NCBI GenBank assembly: GCA_965198265.1
Contig: CBDAPB010000032.1
Coordinates: 194,557 to 258,556 of the forward strand
Direction: 5' to 3'
Source: Terriglobia bacterium
Lineage (GTDB): Bacteria > Acidobacteriota > Terriglobia > 20CM-2-55-15
DNA: 64,000 bases
Shown: piece by piece, positions 736 through 56,452 of the stretch
Numbering within the stretch: position 1 is the first letter of the stretch
Layout of the letters: each line of letters begins with the position of its first letter
The notes under the pieces: generated by a model
What the model saw: only the letters and a program-made list of their open reading frames with translations
What the model was told of the DNA's origin: nothing
Database searches by the model: none
Translations under genes and position numbers: made by a program

Positions 736-1107
736 TTATTCGCCAAAAATTTGAGATGGGTCGGGATCATTGGCGTTCCCGCTCTCATCAGGACTGTTCT
801 GGTGCTCCAGGGACTGATGGACATCCTCCATCACACTCCGGATGTTGATCAGCTCTTCCAGGCTGCTGAATTGCGCAAGTTGCGCAACGAACTCGGCACC
901 GTCCATCGGGTTCATGGGATCCTGTCCCTTCATCTGCGCGACCAGCAGCTGCAGGAACTGAGATTTTTGTTCCTGTGCCTTGGTCGTCGTGAGCTGGAGC
1001 TCTTTCGACACGGGAGTAGACGTAACTGATTCAAGCATTCTCTGCCTCCTCGGTCCTCCATAAGGCACGTCCGCTGCCGAATCTTTCTTGCCCACAAACA
1101 ATTGCAT
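736..1107 (-). CDS. flgD: Flagellar hook assembly/capping protein FlgD (short form)
   Basis: Carries the FlgD motif [31 protein letters not shown]. Lies immediately upstream of flgE. The true start may be internal (MLESV...). Confidence 0.8.
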
Positions 1108-1260
1108 TCATTGATGCTTGAACCTTCGACCGAAGTCACTGCTCTTGAAAAATTTCCCCACCCGGCAGTTTTTTCTCATGTCAGAGGGCCCGGGTGCCGA
1201 TACGTTATGGCCCCTGCCGGCTGAGCCCAGCGGGGCCCGTAGCCGTTGTGCCCTTCGGCT

Positions 1261-3128: not shown

Positions 3129-3584
3129 TTACGCCCGGCTCTTGCGTACATACCGGACGAGGGAAGTTTCGTCGATCATTTTCTGCATCATTGCAGATTC
3201 TTCCCGCTCCGCTTGTTGCAATTGGCGTTCCCGCAGCTTTTCGACGGTCTTTTTCTCCTTGAGGGCTTCCCTCAGGACTGCCTTGCGTTCTTCAAGCTTA
3301 GTAGTTGCTTTTTCAATATCTTGGCGGATTCGGCAAGAGCGACTTTCGGCCGCTCCGACAAACTTTTCGGTACACTGCAGACCCTCGGCGCTGAGCCCTC
3401 CAGGCTGGGAAAATTCTTCCATCGCCTGGCGGATTTTTCCCGCCTCCTCCGCCAGCCGCCCCTCGAGTCGCCGGATATCCCGCTCGCTCTCCCGGACGCG
3501 GGCTTCGGCCGCATCGACGGCGATCTGCCGCACGGACATGAGGCGGTCAAGGCGATTGAGGCTTTGTTTAGTTTCGGTCTTCAT
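3129..3584 (-). CDS. fliJ: Flagellar export chaperone FliJ (coiled coil)
   Basis: 151 aa, charged coiled coil, between fliI and fliK. Confidence 0.7.
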   Translation of the reverse strand: MKTETKQSLNRLDRLMSVRQIAVDAAEARVRESERDIRRLEGRLAEEAGKIRQAMEEFSQPGGLSAEGLQCTEKFVGAAESRSCRIRQDIEKATTKLEERKAVLREALKEKKTVEKLRERQLQQAEREESAMMQKMIDETSLVRYVRKSRA

Positions 3585-3593
3585 GGCGCAAAA

Positions 3594-3676
3594 GTGGTCA
3601 GTGGTCAGTGGTCAGTGGCCAGCAAATCGCCGCATCAACTTCCGATTCTGACCACTGGCCACTGGTCACTGGCCAC
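3594..3676. repeat. Heptamer-repeat palindromic element: (GTGGTCA)3-GTGGCCAG / 25-nt spacer / (CTGACCA, CTGGCCA) arm
   Basis: Inverted arms of tandem 7-mers that exactly fill the fliJ-fliI junction. The right arm encodes the last 3 codons and stop of fliI. Confidence 0.85.
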
Positions 3677-5003
3677 TATCCAGCGCTGCCAGTTCGACGA
3701 GACTCGAGCGCGTGCCGTCCATGTCGGCTCGCTCCTCGGCTGGCTGCTTCAGAAAACTGTTGATGGAATCGAGGCGGTCGATCGCCGTGTCGACACGCGG
3801 GTTCGAACCCTTCTTGTAGGCGCCGATCTGGATCAGGTCCTCGGCCTTCTTGTGCGTGCCGAGCAGGTCACGGATCTCGGTCGCCGATTTCTGGTGTTGG
3901 GCGTCCACCATCTGCATCATGAGCCGGCTGTTACTGGCGAGAAGGTCAATGCAGGGGTAATGACCTCTCGAAGCCAGTTCGCGGTCCAGCACGATGTGGC
4001 CGTCCAGGATCGCGCGGACCGAATCGGCGATCGGGTCGTTCATGTCGTCGCCTTCGACCAGGATCGTGTAGAAAGCCGTGATGCTACCCTCGTCGAACTT
4101 GCCTGCCCGCTCCAGAAGCCTGGGAAGCAGCGAAAAGACCGACGGCGTGTACCCTTTGGTCGACGGTGGTTCTCCCGCTGCCAATCCCACCTCTCGCTGC
4201 GCCATCGCGAACCGGGTCACCGAATCCATCATCAGCAGCACGTTGTGTCCCCGCCTCTGGAAGTACTCGGCCGCAGCGGTCGCCGCGAACGCGGCGCGTA
4301 TGCGCACCAGCGCCGGCTGGTCCGAGGTCGAGACAAATACGACGGAGCGCTTCAGACCTTCTTCACCGAGGTCGTTCTCGATAAACTCGCGCACCTCCCG
4401 GCCTCGCTCGCCGATCATGGCAATCACGTTCAGGTCGGCGCTAGTGTAACGGGCGATCATGCCCAGCAGCGTACTCTTGCCCACGCCGCTTCCTCCGAAG
4501 ATTCCGACTCTCTGGCCCATGCCACAGGTAAGCAATCCGTCTATGGATCGAATACCGGTCTGAATGGGATCTCGGATGGGGTCTCGAGACAGCGGATTCG
4601 ACGGCTCCGCATACAAAGCCTGCTGGCCCAGACCGGTGGGCAGTGGCCGCTCATCGATTGGACGACCGAGGCCGTCCAAAACCCGGCCCAGTAGCTCGTC
4701 TCCCACACCGATGGTGGCGACGCGGCCTGAAGCGTACACACGGTCACCCTGCTTGACGTTTTCGAGCTTGCCGAGCGGCATCGTGATCACCTTGCCTTCG
4801 TTGAAACCCACGACTTCCAGCGGGACCTTTGTCCCGGCGCTCTCGGCCCAGCAAATGGAGCCCGTCGTCACGTTCGGACCATGGGATTCGATGGAGTTGC
4901 CGACGACCTTATCGATAAGTCCGAATTCGATCAGAGAGTTCAGTTCGGCGAGGCGGGAGTAGCGCTCGGCAAGGTTCAAATCTTTGGCAAACTGGTTCGG
5001 CAT
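3666..5003 (-). CDS. fliI: Flagellum-specific ATP synthase FliI
   Basis: Walker A motif GGSGVGKST. Shares the F1/T3SS ATPase family. Confidence 0.95.
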   Translation of the reverse strand: MPNQFAKDLNLAERYSRLAELNSLIEFGLIDKVVGNSIESHGPNVTTGSICWAESAGTKVPLEVVGFNEGKVITMPLGKLENVKQGDRVYASGRVATIGVGDELLGRVLDGLGRPIDERPLPTGLGQQALYAEPSNPLSRDPIRDPIQTGIRSIDGLLTCGMGQRVGIFGGSGVGKSTLLGMIARYTSADLNVIAMIGERGREVREFIENDLGEEGLKRSVVFVSTSDQPALVRIRAAFAATAAAEYFQRRGHNVLLMMDSVTRFAMAQREVGLAAGEPPSTKGYTPSVFSLLPRLLERAGKFDEGSITAFYTILVEGDDMNDPIADSVRAILDGHIVLDRELASRGHYPCIDLLASNSRLMMQMVDAQHQKSATEIRDLLGTHKKAEDLIQIGAYKKGSNPRVDTAIDRLDSINSFLKQPAEERADMDGTRSSLVELAALDSGQ

Positions 5004-6586: not shown

Positions 6587-6789
6587 ATCTAACCTGCGCT
6601 CTCTGTCTCAGCCCGGATTATTCGTGCTTGTCGTCGCGAAGCGGTGGAGACGCCGCAGAGACAAGGCGCGCGACCGAGGCCCCCGCAGGCGTATATGACA
6701 ATACGTCGAGGAGGCCGACCGAGCGCAACGCCGTATCTGCGAGTGTATCCGCCGCTGCAGTAGACAATTCATGAATAAATCCGGGCTAA

Positions 6790-9377: not shown

Positions 9378-9751
9378 CAGGCACCTCCATCGGTGATGCT
9401 GGACCGAAGAGTCCGCATCTTGTTCTGCAGGAACTGCATCAACGTGACGAACTGCAACCCGTTCTTGGTGACCTCGGTCAGTTCCCGGTCCAAGTCGACG
9501 GTGTTCCCGTTCGGCTTGGTCTTCGTGTCGACGTCGAACATCCGAAAGCCGGAGCTCGTTGCAGCATTAGTCATGTGGCGGCCAGCGGTGCCAACCAGGT
9601 TGAGCAACTCCAGCCGTTCTTCGAACGTCACGTCTTGGGCCCTGTACCCGGGCGTGTCGACGTTTGCGATGTTTGCAGACAGCACCTGCTGTCGCTTGGA
9701 AGCGACGGAGAGCTGGCTCTCGATGAAGTTCATGAAGCTACTTTCGATCAT
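9377..9751 (-). CDS. flgB: Flagellar basal-body rod protein FlgB
   Basis: Carries the SANIANVDTPGYRAQDVTFE motif. Confidence 0.9.
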   Translation of the reverse strand: MIESSFMNFIESQLSVASKRQQVLSANIANVDTPGYRAQDVTFEERLELLNLVGTAGRHMTNAATSSGFRMFDVDTKTKPNGNTVDLDRELTEVTKNGLQFVTLMQFLQNKMRTLRSSITDGGA

Positions 9752-11055
9752 GCTGTTGCTTCCTCGAGTCGATATTCTTTCAACTTGTTGCGTAGGGTCC
9801 GTAGCGATATGCCGAGCAGCTTTGCGGCGTGGGTGCGGTTACCGTCGGTCTGGTCCAACGTAGCCAGAATCAGCTTTCGTTCCATCTCACTGACCGAGTA
9901 GCCGGCTTGCAGTTGCAGGCCGTCTCCGGTGTCGACCGCCTGGTCGAACAGATCCGCCGGCATGACCTGCAGGCGACCGCGCAGCGCATAGGATCGATGG
10001 ATCACGTTCTCGAGTTCCCGGACGTTGCCCGGCCAACCAAAACTGGTGAGGACCTTCAGCGATTCGTCGTTGACGCTTGGGTCGGTTGCGCCGCCGTACT
10101 TGTTGGCAAAGTGCGCAGTAAGGATGGCGATGTCGTCTCTTCGCTCCCGCAGAGGCGGGATTCGCAGCGGCACGACGTTCAGCCTGAAGAACAGGTCTTC
10201 CCGGAACTGGCCGCGGCTGATCAACTTCTTCAAGTCCTTGTGCGTGGTTGCAATGACTCTGACGCTGATCGGAACCGGTTTCTTGCCACCCACGCGATCG
10301 ACTTCCTGCTCCTGGAGAACCCGCAAAAGCTTCGCCTGGAGCAGGGGCGCCATCTCGCCAATCTCGTCGAGCAGAATCGTACCCTGTTGCGCAAGTTCAA
10401 ATTTCCCTAGTTTCAGAGCGTTGGCGCCCGTAAAAGCACCTTTCTCGTATCCGAACAGTTCCGATTCCAGCAGGTTGTCGGGAAGAGCGGCACAGTTAAC
10501 CGCGACAAACGGCCCCTTGGATCTGTTGCTGCTCTCGTGAATCCAGCGCGCCAGCAGTTCCTTACCAGTTCCGCTCTCGGCCTGAACCAGGACCGTCGCA
10601 TCCGTCCGGGCGGCCTGGGCGGCATCGGCAAGCAGTTTTTTCATCTGGCGGTTCTCGCTGATGATCTCGGTCCTCTTCGTGGGCGCCGGCCGGGAGTCTT
10701 TCTTTGGAAGCCGCGCCAGCACTCGATCGAGCGCCTCCTGTGAGAACGGTTTCACAAGAAAATCCATCGCGCCGTTCCGCATGGCATCCACCGCGGTCGG
10801 GACGCTTCCGTATGCTGAGAGCAGGATTACGGGGAGGTCGGGACTCGTTCGGCGGACGTGGTCGAGCAGCTCCAGGCCGTCCATCGCCGGCATCCGTAGA
10901 TCGGTGATGATAGCCCTGGGTAACCGGACTTTGAGCTTCTGGACAGCATCGATGCCGTTCGAAGCCGTTTCCACCTCGTACCCGCGGCTGAGGAGAGCAG
11001 CTTCCAACGCCGACAGCATTTGAATGTCATCATCGACAACCATCAACCAACTCAC
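9748..11055 (-). CDS. Sigma54-dependent response regulator (REC + AAA+ sigma54 activator + Fis HTH), FlgR/FlrC-like
   Basis: Has a receiver-domain DD...D start, the GAFTGA loop (EKGAFTGA), ESGTGKE Walker A and a C-terminal HTH. Its stop overlaps the flgB start. A GTG start at 11055 is preceded by AGGAGG. Confidence 0.9.
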   Translation of the reverse strand: MSWLMVVDDDIQMLSALEAALLSRGYEVETASNGIDAVQKLKVRLPRAIITDLRMPAMDGLELLDHVRRTSPDLPVILLSAYGSVPTAVDAMRNGAMDFLVKPFSQEALDRVLARLPKKDSRPAPTKRTEIISENRQMKKLLADAAQAARTDATVLVQAESGTGKELLARWIHESSNRSKGPFVAVNCAALPDNLLESELFGYEKGAFTGANALKLGKFELAQQGTILLDEIGEMAPLLQAKLLRVLQEQEVDRVGGKKPVPISVRVIATTHKDLKKLISRGQFREDLFFRLNVVPLRIPPLRERRDDIAILTAHFANKYGGATDPSVNDESLKVLTSFGWPGNVRELENVIHRSYALRGRLQVMPADLFDQAVDTGDGLQLQAGYSVSEMERKLILATLDQTDGNRTHAAKLLGISLRTLRNKLKEYRLEEATA

Positions 11056-15638: not shown

Positions 15639-15688
15639 ATGGTTGCCATATTTTTATGCCAGTGCCCGAAAGCGTCAAGGGGAAAATA

Positions 15689-15780
15689 GTAATCAGTCAA
15701 AAGTAGTCAGTGGTCAGTTGAAGAAGGAGCGGAAAGAGGCGGGTCGCGGCTGGCAACTGACTACTGGCTACTGACTATTC
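15689..15780. repeat. Heptamer-repeat palindromic element (GTAATCA/GTAGTCA/GTGGTCA arm; AACTGACTACTGGCTACTGACTA arm)
   Basis: Lies between the VWA gene start and the ferredoxin stop. Confidence 0.85.
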
Positions 15781-19738: not shown

Positions 19739-19774
19739 AACTGACTACTGACTACCGACTACTGACTACTATCC
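19739..19774. repeat. Heptamer-repeat element, half copy: (TGACTAC)5
   Basis: In the divergent pgeF/acpS promoter region, ending 2 nt before the acpS ATG. Confidence 0.8.
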
Positions 19775-25823: not shown

Positions 25824-26615
25824 ATGGATTTAGGACTTCAGAACAAAGCAGCTCTTGTGGCAGCCGCCAGCAAGGGCCTGGGCCGGGCCGTGGCCGAAGA
25901 ACTCGCCCGCGAAGGCGCGCGGGTTGCCATCTGCTCCAGGAACGAAGCCCTTATCTTGCAAGTGGCGGGCGAAATTGCCGGCGAAACCGGCAGCGAGGTC
26001 TTTGGGCTGAAGGCCGACGTTTCCCGGACCGAAGACGTCGAGAAGCTGGTTTCCGGGGTTGCTGGCCGCTTCGGTACGATCGACATCCTCGTCACCAACG
26101 CAGGCGGCCCGCCGCCGGGGACCTTCGACACGCTCGAGAACTCGGCGTGGGCAGCCGCCTTCCATCTGAACCTTTTGAGTGTTGTGAACCTCTGCCGGGC
26201 AGCCATACCCTACATGAAGGTGAATCGGTGGGGGCGAATCATCAACATTACCTCGATCTCGGTCAAGCAACCGGTGGACGGATTGCTGCTATCGAACAGC
26301 CTGAGGGCCGGTGTCGTCGGGCTAGCGAAGACTCTCTCAAAGGAACTCGGACCAGACAATATTCTAGTCAACAATGTATGTCCGGGATTCACCATGACCG
26401 ACCGGGTGGAACAACTCGCAAACGCCACGGCGGAACGCACGGGCGTGTCGAGAGACGACGTAGTCCGAAACTGGGAGTCCACGATCCCGCTGGGCCGCAT
26501 CGGCAGTACCGCAGAGTTCGCGGCTCTTGTCGCCTTCCTGGCTTCGGAGCGGGCCAGCTATATTACAGGCACGACGATTCCCATCGATGGAGGCGCGGTT
26601 CAGGGATTGATGTAG
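25824..26615 (+). CDS. SDR family oxidoreductase
   Basis: NAD(P)-binding fold (G-rich AAASKGLGRA), YxxxK-type active site, NAG motif. Confidence 0.85.
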   Translation: MDLGLQNKAALVAAASKGLGRAVAEELAREGARVAICSRNEALILQVAGEIAGETGSEVFGLKADVSRTEDVEKLVSGVAGRFGTIDILVTNAGGPPPGTFDTLENSAWAAAFHLNLLSVVNLCRAAIPYMKVNRWGRIINITSISVKQPVDGLLLSNSLRAGVVGLAKTLSKELGPDNILVNNVCPGFTMTDRVEQLANATAERTGVSRDDVVRNWESTIPLGRIGSTAEFAALVAFLASERASYITGTTIPIDGGAVQGLM

Positions 26616-26784
26616 TTGAGTAGTCAGTAGCCAGTAGTCGGTAGTCAGTTGGCGGACGCTCAGCAGCCATTGTGGCCCGAACCGCCACGACAAGCAAAAC
26701 CGACAGGTGACAAGCCAGTCAGTGAAACGCGGAAACGTAACTGACTACCGACTACTGACTACTGACTACTGACTACTGACTACT
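26613..26784. repeat. Heptamer-repeat palindromic element with an 85-nt core (arms (GTAGTCA)n / (TGACTAC)7)
   Basis: Fills the entire SDR-HDAC-like intergenic space. Its core is related to the 35241-35374 copy. Confidence 0.9.
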
Positions 26785-28689: not shown

Positions 28690-28750
28690 GCCCTGGATTG
28701 CACGGACGAATTCGGCTACGGATTTAGCGGATTTAGCGGATTACGAGACG
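28690..28750. repeat. Second copy of the CACGGA / GGATTTAGC repeat cluster (GGATTTAGC x2 tandem)
   Basis: Shares 14-19-nt blocks with 14340-14385 in reverse complement. Confidence 0.7.
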
Positions 28751-35240: not shown

Positions 35241-35374
35241 GAAGTAGTCAGTAGTCAGTAGTCAGTAGTCAGTTGCCGGAACGCTCAGCGGCAACTGTGG
35301 CCCGAACGAGTGACGAGTCAACCAATGACAAGCTGAACCCCAACTGACTACTGATTACTGACTACTGACTACTG
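35241..35374. repeat. Heptamer-repeat palindromic element with a 63-nt core (arms (GTAGTCA)4 / (TGACTAC)4)
   Basis: Lies between the mfd start and the hldE-like stop. Its core shares ACGCTCAGC.GC.A.TGTGGCCCGAAC with the 26613 copy. Confidence 0.9.
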
Positions 35375-35866
35375 CGGGTTGTCTCCCGCAAGGCGGGAGA
35401 CAACCCGCTCTATTATTCCCGAAGTGGACTGGCCTTCTACCAGTTCCAGCGCAACAACCTTGCCGCCCCATCCCTCCACCTCGGGCTGACCCACAATCCC
35501 TTCATCCAGCCAATCGGCGCCCTTCACGAGCACGTCGGGACGGATTTCGAGAATTGTCGCGAGCGGTGTGTCTTCCTCGAAAATATACACAAAATCAACC
35601 ATTTCGAGCGCGGCGAGGATCTCTTCGCGCTCCCGCTCGTCGAAGATGGGGCGTTTGTCGCCCTTCAGACGACTGACCGATTCGTCGCCGTTGATCGCGA
35701 CGATCAGCACATCGCCTAGCGCTCTGGCTCGCCGGAACAGGTCGATGTGGCCGGCATGCAGAAGGTCGAAGCAGCCGTTCGTCAGGACGACGCGCTTGCC
35801 CTCGGCCTGCAACCGGCGAACACGCTGCACAAGGATGTCAATTGTCTCGGTTTTGGACGTGGACAT
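35369..35866 (-). CDS. D-glycero-beta-D-manno-heptose 1-phosphate adenylyltransferase-like cytidylyltransferase (RfaE domain II / HldE C-terminus)
   Basis: VLTNGCFDLLHAGH motif. The C-terminal 11 codons are encoded by a perfect hairpin (35376-35406). Confidence 0.85.
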   Translation of the reverse strand: MSTSKTETIDILVQRVRRLQAEGKRVVLTNGCFDLLHAGHIDLFRRARALGDVLIVAINGDESVSRLKGDKRPIFDEREREEILAALEMVDFVYIFEEDTPLATILEIRPDVLVKGADWLDEGIVGQPEVEGWGGKVVALELVEGQSTSGIIERVVSRLAGDNPQ

Positions 35867-47682: not shown

Positions 47683-47710
47683 TGGGGGAGTCGTCAGTTC
47701 GGGAAAAGAG

Positions 47711-47783
47711 ACGAGTAACAAGTGACGGGTGACGAGCAAGAGCGGGGTTTCGACTTGTCACTTGTCACTCTTCACTCGTCACC
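47711..47783. repeat. Heptamer-repeat palindromic element, GTGAC-type 7-mers
   Basis: GTAACAA GTGACGG GTGACGA ... CTTGTCA CTTGTCA CTCTTCA CTCGTCA, between the ALDH and MFS genes. Confidence 0.75.
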
Positions 47784-47815
47784 AGAGCGAAACGGTGATA
47801 GAAGAAAGCCCCTGA

Positions 47816-56333: not shown

Positions 56334-56360
56334 GCGCGTGATCCTCCGGATCAAGCGAGC

Positions 56361-56452
56361 GATCAGCGGTCAGCCTTCAGCTACTTCCGAAACGGGACGA
56401 TAGTCCCATCCGATTGAGCTGACAGCTGATAGCTTACGGCTGATAGCTGATC
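56361..56452. repeat. Heptamer-repeat palindromic element, (NNTCAGC)3 arm / (GCTGANN)5 arm
   Basis: GATCAGC GGTCAGC CTTCAGC ... GCTGACA GCTGATA GCTTACG GCTGATA GCTGATC. Ends at the mltG stop codon. Confidence 0.8.

Follow-up and report, generated by a model that had tools for sequence, protein, structure and literature searches.

Introduction

Arrays of tandem heptanucleotides have been known in bacteria for decades and, to our knowledge, have no agreed function or origin. Here we describe a hairpin of two inverted heptamer arrays between the flagellar genes fliI and fliJ in a 64-kb stretch of DNA from a Terriglobia bacterium (Acidobacteriota; assembly GCA_965198265.1, contig CBDAPB010000032.1, positions 194,557 to 258,556; hereafter the window), and compare it with the closest described repeat systems. 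Among these are the cyanobacterial STRR or heptanucleotide repeats, reportedly described as long simple-sequence repeats by Mazel in 1990 and Mrazek in 2007, which are likewise intergenic tandem 7-nucleotide (nt) units, often lie within about 30 nt of a start codon and occur as several unit types per genome. The STRR-containing nif intergenic regions of Anabaena are said to have been characterized in 1995 as "variable but structured". We take the STRR2 unit TTGGTCA to differ at one position from the GTGGTCA unit treated here, and STRR1 and STRR3 presumably share the CAGT core. In Nostoc, GAC(C/T)AAT arrays lie within 30 nt of start codons (bioRxiv 10.1101/2022.06.06.494920).

Other systems share single features with the element. 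The TAACTGA repeats of marine Beggiatoaceae, Cyanobacteria and Bacteroidetes abut start codons, and Shine-Dalgarno motifs are rare beside them; 14 sets overlap the end of the upstream open reading frame (ORF), with stops occurring in all frames, and a post-transcriptional role has been proposed, not shown (MacGregor 2015, PMC4679880). The (ATCTTTC)n hairpin in the hmw 5' untranslated region (5'-UTR) of H. influenzae is processed by RNase III and exerts post-transcriptional control (PMC12721329). The termini of GTAG-tagged REPs often supply TAG stops, and their dimers form large hairpins (Di Nocera 2013, PMC3733652).

Results

By its top-scoring FliI matches and a scan of genomes, the window belongs to an uncultured Terriglobia lineage; its host is a soil acidobacterium. 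The genes fliI and fliJ both lie on the minus strand, and all coordinates are given on the forward strand of the window. The gene fliI, which encodes the flagellar export ATPase (3666-5003, 445 amino acids; PF00006/PF18269, ATP-synt_ab and T3SS_ATPase_C), is separated by a gap of 81 nt (3585-3665) from fliJ (3129-3584, 151 amino acids), whose family, PF02050, was matched on the identical gene of L084, an independent contig of another ENA sample. The plus strand reads GTGGTCA GTGGTCA GTGGTCA GTGGCCA at 3594-3621 and TGACCAC TGGCCAC TGGTCAC TGGCCAC at 3649-3676. A repeat search delimited inverted arms of 30 nt each (3593-3622 and 3648-3677) with 83% complementarity and 25 nt between them, and Tandem Repeats Finder returned a period of 7 on both sides, with 4.3 copies per array and 95% and 86% matches. 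The arms are two inverted arrays of four GTGGYCA heptamers, which make up a hairpin of 85 bases with a spacer of 25-27 nt, depending on the choice of arm boundaries. In mRNA sense, the 5' arm (3648-3677, AGTGGCC AGTGACC AGTGGCC AGTGGTC AG) is followed by the 25-nt loop AATCGGAAGTTGATGCGGCGATTTG (3623-3647), the 3' arm (3593-3622, CTGGCCA CTGACCA CTGACCA CTGACCA CT), which ends 8-9 nt 5' of the fliJ ATG, and an 8-nt linker, UUUGCGCC (3585-3592).

The first-pass annotation had described the element as exactly filling the 81-nt gap. It nearly does: it takes up 73 nt of the gap and 12 nt of fliI, and the 8 nt of the linker are left before the fliJ ATG. The reading of the FliI C-terminus from the arm was borne out in full, as fliI closes with GAT AGT GGC CAG TGA (D-S-G-Q-stop) and the 5' arm encodes both Ser-Gly-Gln (AGT GGC CAG, 3669-3677) and the stop (3666-3668). 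The TGA arises from a single variant unit, GTGACCA.

The strong hairpin that had been proposed was also recovered: the predicted fold of the sense RNA reaches -55.8 kcal/mol (z -5.5), a value equalled by none of 200 shuffles, and that of the antisense RNA -61.6 kcal/mol (z -7.3). The fliI stop codon occupies nucleotides 10-12 of the 5' arm, GCGC at 3586-3589 is paired with GCGC at 3683-3686 in an outer helix, and the sense fold pairs nucleotides -40 to -3 counted from the fliJ AUG. Since the window contains 7 occurrences of the two-unit pattern GTGGYCAGTGGYCA (at most one mismatch) where 0.06 would be expected, and in view of the z-scores of the fold, the array is not due to chance. Nor is it an assembly artefact, because L084, which is 99.93% identical to the window over 14.4 kb, carries an identical copy. 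No Rfam 15 covariance model matched at gathering score across the whole window. The linker before fliJ has no Shine-Dalgarno motif; this was rejected as a distinctive trait, the motif being present in merely 11 of the 25 genes of the locus.

The element is not specific to fliI, because the window contains at least five more inverted heptamer-array hairpins and loci from metagenomes show the same architecture. Mixed GTAGTCA/GTGGTCA units at 15683-15780 separate a Fer2-domain gene from a VWA gene (both minus strand), with the upstream stop 5 nt outside one arm and the VWA ATG about 33-40 nt past the other. A (GTAGTCA)n...(TGACTAC)n pair with a spacer of about 90 nt lies at 26613-26784 between a short-chain dehydrogenase (SDR) gene and a deacetylase-family gene (both plus strand); the upstream TAG stop is inside the first, degenerate unit, and the start of the deacetylase gene is uncertain. 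The same arrays at 35243-35374 lie between a cytidylyltransferase-like gene, whose TAG stop is inside the arm, and mfd, whose ATG lies 12 nt past the other arm (both minus strand). These three copies join co-directional pairs (Fer2-VWA, SDR-deacetylase and cytidylyltransferase-like-mfd, as assigned with Pfam) from stop to start, with the upstream stop inside one arm or at most 5 nt from it. The claim that the fliI-fliJ copy is the clearest example within an operon is therefore fair as regards the certainty of the operon, but three other copies likewise bridge co-directional genes.

Two further inverted pairs have other unit types with the same polarity, namely GTRACRR ... YYGTYAC at 47700-47790, where GT...AC is kept, and TCAGCNN ... 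AGCTGAN at 56360-56452, between convergent genes. A (ACTGACT)4 array at 19740-19770, between divergent genes, ends 5 nt before the acpS ATG and has a weak or degenerate inverted partner, and a single (GTAGTCA)3 array lies at 1261-1283 in the gap between a 554-amino-acid ORF and flgD, a position at which relatives have other heptamers. The commoner unit in the host genome is GTAGTCA, whereas the fliI-fliJ element is built of GTGGYCA.

Public metagenomes were scanned for three GTRGYCA units, which yielded at least 120 loci; all counts for the class refer to the matches listed. The hosts of these loci are probably diverse, because their G + C content spans 0.37-0.76. An inverted partner within 250 nt of (GTRGYCA)n was present downstream in 44 of 116 arrays (38%) and upstream in 1 of 118, which rules out an array type made of direct repeats only. 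The polarity, 5'-(GTRGYCA)n ... (TGRCYAC)n-3', is strict and holds on both strands. Within an element, both arms tend to be of one unit type (0.844, against 0.615 +/- 0.055 with arms swapped between elements; none of 300 permutations was as high).

The position of the elements relative to genes is likewise far from random. An ORF of at least 150 codons ends between -12 and +21 of the 5' arm in 23 of 36 two-armed elements (random mean 2.4, maximum 8); 7 of the 36 also have the start of a long ORF at most 40 nt past the other arm, and so form a bridge from stop to start (random 0.44), and in 6 of the 36 ORFs end in this way on both strands (convergent genes). Because ORF-end and stop-to-start placement recurs across elements, the fliI/fliJ arrangement is typical of the class. 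In 42% of cases, (ACTGRYY)n arrays have the start codon of an ORF of at least 60 codons within the 40 nt that follow them, clustered at 6-13 nt; arrays of the opposite type reach 26% and random positions 30%. The 8 nt past the 3' arm are mildly enriched in T or pyrimidine class-wide, with at least four T in 22% against 8% of the background. In three elements (L095 4679-4877, L126 154-383 and L109 909-1010), outer GTGGCCA/GTGGTCA units grade inward to GTGACGA, GGGGTCA or GTGGTCG, and the gradient is mirrored on the other arm; such gradients look like turnover of units in situ and not like the insertion of a fixed sequence.

The first-pass annotation had tied the FliI C-terminus to the element, and the C-termini indeed vary wherever the junction element varies. 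After the residues LAAL, the window and L084 (100% identity) have DSGQ, L081 and L082 (93% and 92%) EGQGPSGQ, L083 (91%) only E, L002 (82%) EEPARQKGS and L004 (81%) RSD; L001 (94%) has GPEGPQ after LAAV, and FliI of L003 (82%) has no tail (ends ...AAL). The tails of homologues comprise 0-11 unrelated residues beyond LAAL. The alignment to the solved Salmonella FliI stops at residue 433 of 445, so that the last 12 residues lie beyond the conserved core. Because the tails vary among relatives and lie outside the conserved ATPase core, the repeat-encoded SGQ is most likely a neutral appendage of FliI. On the other side of the junction, the closest relatives keep the FliJ start M-K-T-E-T-K-Q: FliJ of L001, L081-L083 and L002/L003 aligns from residue 1, and that of L004 and L009 from residue 4 onward only.

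The junction itself is highly variable yet structured. The fliI-fliJ gap measures 81-630 nt in the eight relatives that were folded (about 45 nt, by eye, in L009), and in six of the eight it is strongly structured relative to shuffles (z -4 to -12.6). In L001, L081 and L082, the fliI stop is the TAG of CCAGTAGGCCGT, read in the context CCAGTAG inside a GTAGGCC arm, and CCAGTAGGCCGT is the first unit of inverted GTAGGCC/GTTRTCC arrays (14-mer period) that bracket the gap. Such arrays occupy the fliI-fliJ and fliK-flgD gaps (L001 7341-7545, L081 5347-5420, L082 5347-5444 and 7624-7823). The sequence GTAGGCCGTT occurs 15 times in these three loci together (about 32 kb) and not at all in the 64-kb window. 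Arrays of at least three units with the CAGT core were found only in the window and L084 among 84 fliI loci; the fliK-flgD gap of relatives does contain GT-anchored heptamers, though shorter or variant ones (GTGGTCA/GTGGCCA in L083, ACCGACT in L001). The window and L081/L082 align in the junction context C-C-A-G-T-R-R, in the loop and in the last 3' unit (ACTGACCACT against ACGGACAACT), which is no more than suggestive of a single ancestral element with joint turnover of its arms. Because the sister lineages share the stop context CCAGT-R-R and likewise have a hairpin in this place, an element has probably been present at the junction since before their split. The motif TGTGGCCCGAA, common to two copies in the window and to L003, was discarded as its frequency is at chance level.

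The gene order in L084 is flgB/C-like, fliE, fliF, fliG, fliH, fliI, fliJ, the 554-amino-acid ORF, flgD, flgE, fliL and export genes; the ORF between fliJ and flgD has no Pfam match. The genes are closely spaced (an 11-nt overlap of fliG with fliH, 16 nt between fliH and fliI, and 15 nt after fliJ), and fliI and fliJ are, to judge from their arrangement, very likely co-transcribed. The fliF-fliG gap (6587-6789, 203 nt), of which L083 and L082 have just 25-55 nt, is occupied by another kind of inverted-repeat element, 170 nt long, with the termini AGCCCGGATTTATTC ... GAATAATCCGGGCT; no second copy of its terminus was found within the window. The fliK-flgD gap is filled with repeats in its 5' half, and its 3' part of about 170 nt (about 1040-1215, minus strand), which reads ACATGAGAAAAAACTGCCGGGTGGGGA.ATTTTTCAAGAGCA..., is strongly conserved in four lineages. 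This stretch 5' of flgD may serve flgD-flgE as a promoter or as a 5'-UTR element.

The sole structural difference between L084 and the window over 14.4 kb is a 627-bp IS200/IS605-like insertion (L084 3882-4509; Y1_Tnp, 144 amino acids) directly after TTAAC. The insertion point corresponds to about 10494/10495 and splits a sigma-54 activator gene (9748-11055, minus strand) that is intact in the window. The insertion has subterminal hairpins without heptamer arrays; its right end (L084 4500-4509) reads GGTAGCTGAT and the arrays at 56417-56451 are (AGCTGAT/AGCTGAC)n, a resemblance that may be a coincidence. A tblastn search with its TnpA, which is distant from RAYTs, gave no match, either in the 64-kb window or in the 120 loci that bear arrays.

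The copies at 26613 and 35243 have a common internal core, GGA(A)CGCTCAGCNGCNANTGTGGCCCGAAC ... GTGACRAG (26650-26740 and 35274-35342), which suggests that whole elements have been duplicated or are mobile; with respect to the neighbouring genes, the core is reversed between the two. Adjoining the second of them is a perfect 16-bp GC-rich hairpin, GCGGGTTGTCTCCCGC AAG GCGGGAGACAACCCGC (35375-35410). It is crossed by the cytidylyltransferase-like ORF (35369-35866, minus strand), whose first stop is the TAG in the heptamer arm, and the C-terminal 40 or so residues of this ORF may be repeat-encoded. Other short perfect tandem repeats lie at 28719-28742 (CGGATTTAG, 2.7 copies) and 41214-31 (AATCTCG, 2.6 copies).

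Discussion

In its units the element resembles the STRRs, and in its arrangement a tail-to-tail REP dimer or a transposable element of the miniature inverted-repeat type (MITE). Like heptanucleotide repeats, it has at least three head-to-tail 7-nt units in an intergenic position, where (CTGACCA)n stops 8-9 nt short of the fliJ ATG and the opposite arm overlaps the end of fliI, and its unit GACCACT is one position apart from the GACCAAT of Nostoc. It differs from the STRRs, which have been described as direct arrays, by inverted arrays of fixed polarity, a hairpin of about 30 bp, and its location in the flagellar operon of an acidobacterium. The TAACTGA units are different from those of the fliI-fliJ element, and one genome has 169 direct sets and a single inverted one (PMC4679880), whereas here inversion is the rule (38% of the listed metagenome arrays and most of those in the window). 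The open-access literature yielded no description of such inverted heptamer arrays or of these sequences, and literature searches with the array and STRR unit sequences returned irrelevant matches only.

REP dimers, BIMEs and REPINs are also high-copy, intergenic, inverted pairs with variable spacers of 20-100 nt (PMC3733652), mainly in a co-directional or convergent context. Membership in this class was rejected because a REP unit is a stem-loop of 20-40 nt in its own right, and single arms here fold with 0 to -6.5 kcal/mol (0 for arms of the main family), so that both are required for the hairpin. REPs carry a conserved GT[AG]G tag at their 5' end and flank a cognate RAYT (Y1/HUH transposase), of which none was found in the 64-kb window or the loci. 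All heptamers begin with GTGG or GTAG and the edges of the element read GTGG...CCAC, but the motif recurs every 7 nt and is not one unpaired tag. The element has the terminal inverted repeats of a MITE; it fails as one because its flanks, GCGCAAAA on one side and TATCCAGC on the other, have no duplication, its spacer is unique, and a core is common to the copies at 26613 and 35243 only. In the hmw hairpin, too, one arm of a long mRNA stem-loop 5' of a start codon consists of transcribed heptamers in array, the stem being predicted in our case; it differs by a non-repeat, G-rich partner arm, at least 11 units, phase variability and a 5'-UTR position instead of an intercistronic one. In E. coli, REPs reportedly stabilize intercistronic stretches of operons such as malE-malF (ascribed to Newbury, 1987, and to Liang, Rudd and Deutscher, 2015), and REPs near stop codons are said to stall ribosomes. 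These are similar in that a hairpin repeat near the upstream stop can unbalance the flanking cistrons, but belong to another sequence family, and here the stop codon lies inside the predicted stem.

We consider it reasonably probable that the element belongs to a class of intergenic heptamer hairpins and has long been resident at the fliI-fliJ junction, that its arms have turned over there, that the FliI tail is likely neutral and the origin non-adaptive, and that effects in cis on the mRNA, which we infer, came with it. Its arms would have turned over to different heptamers, the two arms of each element staying matched. Repeat dynamics such as slippage or mobility would account for its origin, and its effects in cis would be tolerated or mildly exploited.

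The geometry of the junction lends itself to such effects. A stem of about 30 bp would begin 9 nt before the fliI stop and, with the outer GCGC helix, reach to 2 nt before the fliJ AUG, thereby hiding the fliJ initiation region. Through its helicase activity, a ribosome at termination opens about 11-13 nt in front of its P site. Because the stop codon of fliI is at nucleotides 10-12 of the 5' arm, a ribosome that terminates there would melt the basal two-thirds of the stem and expose the fliJ initiation region, so that translation of fliJ would be coupled to that of fliI and lower. The long duplex would also be a candidate RNase III site and a barrier to 3'-exonucleases, and the fliI-proximal and fliJ-distal parts of the transcript could differ in lifetime.

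Several observations weigh against this reading of the element. Coupling, RNase cleavage and stability effects are all predictions from geometry. The sense-strand stem carries several C.A mismatches, and the mRNA strand does not fold better than the antisense strand, either in the window or among relatives (each strand is ahead in 5 of 10), which argues against selection specifically on mRNA structure; a sense/antisense asymmetry as a mark of selection at the mRNA level was rejected since there is no trend. Unit variants show no positional covariation within the arms (0.868 observed against 0.904 permuted). The 191-nt gap of L083, whose FliI is 91% identical, is weakly structured (z -0.5), so the hairpin is not obligatory. 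The alignment that points to descent of the junction elements in situ from one ancestor is short and of low complexity. The 25-nt spacer has no relative elsewhere in the window or in 204 loci, L084 excepted, and the spacers of other elements are likewise unmatched in those loci; as neither a target-site duplication nor a spacer homologue nor a transposase was found in the window or the loci, a mobile origin is unproven.

The same geometry could be the product of selection, that is, a hairpin built for this junction to set the ratio of FliI to FliJ or how stable the fliF-fliI and fliJ-flgE mRNA segments are relative to each other. A stop inside the 5' arm and an AUG just past the 3' arm are ideal for ribosome-dependent unmasking, the junction is structured in most relatives despite sequence change, and a lowered output of fliJ would fit the FliI6:FliJ1 stoichiometry of the flagellar export apparatus. 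We nevertheless regard this as unlikely, since the architecture recurs at unrelated gene pairs in tandem, convergent and divergent orientation, the sequence of the element is not conserved in relatives, and the absence of a sense-strand bias and the poorly structured gap of L083 speak against it as well; the unrelated repeats in other gaps of the operon look like the colonization of permissive gaps. Somewhat less likely still is a leaky intrinsic terminator that reduces read-through from fliI into fliJ and beyond. Together, UUUGCGCC and U3593 place four consecutive U behind the stem, on the sense strand only, and the class-wide enrichment of T past the 3' arm and the elements between convergent genes are compatible with such an attenuator. 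One of the four U is paired, however, which leaves three, most members of the class have no U tract, and efficient termination within the tightly packed operon would silence fliJ, for which no separate promoter is obvious. A consensus terminator scan found none on the minus strand at the site, although its limits (stem of at most 20 pairs, loop of 3-8) exclude so long a hairpin. Weak attenuation by the hairpin and the four U is possible.

Two further explanations invoke the arrays themselves. They could be platforms for an RNA- or DNA-binding protein that recognizes heptamers, the ACTGAnn array by the start codon acting as a translational enhancer or operator and the other arm as its anti-sequence. 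The 44:1 polarity always sets (ACTGRYY)n beside the downstream start, these arrays are enriched near start codons, and the TAACTGA arrays of Beggiatoaceae and the GAC(C/T)AAT arrays of Nostoc are likewise forward near start codons (PMC4679880; bioRxiv 10.1101/2022.06.06.494920). The enrichment is modest, though, no candidate protein was identified, the differing units of sister lineages would demand a co-evolving binder, and any element with terminal inverted repeats would show polarity too, all of which makes this explanation improbable. A phase-variable contingency locus, in which gain or loss of units switches fliI/fliJ expression, is more doubtful by far. Heptamer arrays are prone to slippage and the hmw 5'-UTR of H. 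influenzae is a precedent (PMC12721329), but the arrays here are short (four units) and contribute just 9 nt before the fliI stop, so that a change in units would alter the tail only. Unit numbers in the window and L084 are identical, both here and at 1261-1283, which at 99.93% identity is weakly informative.

A broader proposal, which we offer as speculation with little expectation that it holds, is that the GT-anchored heptamer hairpins form one cross-phylum system, comprising cyanobacterial STRRs, TAACTGA repeats and the acidobacterial arrays, of intercistronic couplers opened by ribosomes. A dedicated mechanism or binding factor would match the arms and fix the polarity, and the hairpins, with the upstream stop in the 5' arm and the downstream start just past the 3' arm, would be kept at orthologous junctions as their units turn over.

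This study adds to the known heptanucleotide repeats acidobacterial arrays that are organized as polar inverted pairs, join the stop of one gene to the start of the next far above chance, rewrite protein C-termini, and include a hairpin kept at one orthologous junction while its unit sequence was replaced. Three features stand out, namely the 44:1 polarity, the matched turnover of the two arms at an orthologous junction, and the strong tendency of the elements to be placed exactly between a stop and the next start. Should the structure truly gate translation of fliJ or processing of the mRNA, it would be a general and evolvable device for setting gene ratios in operons; if not, it would be a clean case of selfish or slippage-born repeats that remodel gene ends, which matters for the annotation of C-termini in metagenome-assembled genomes.

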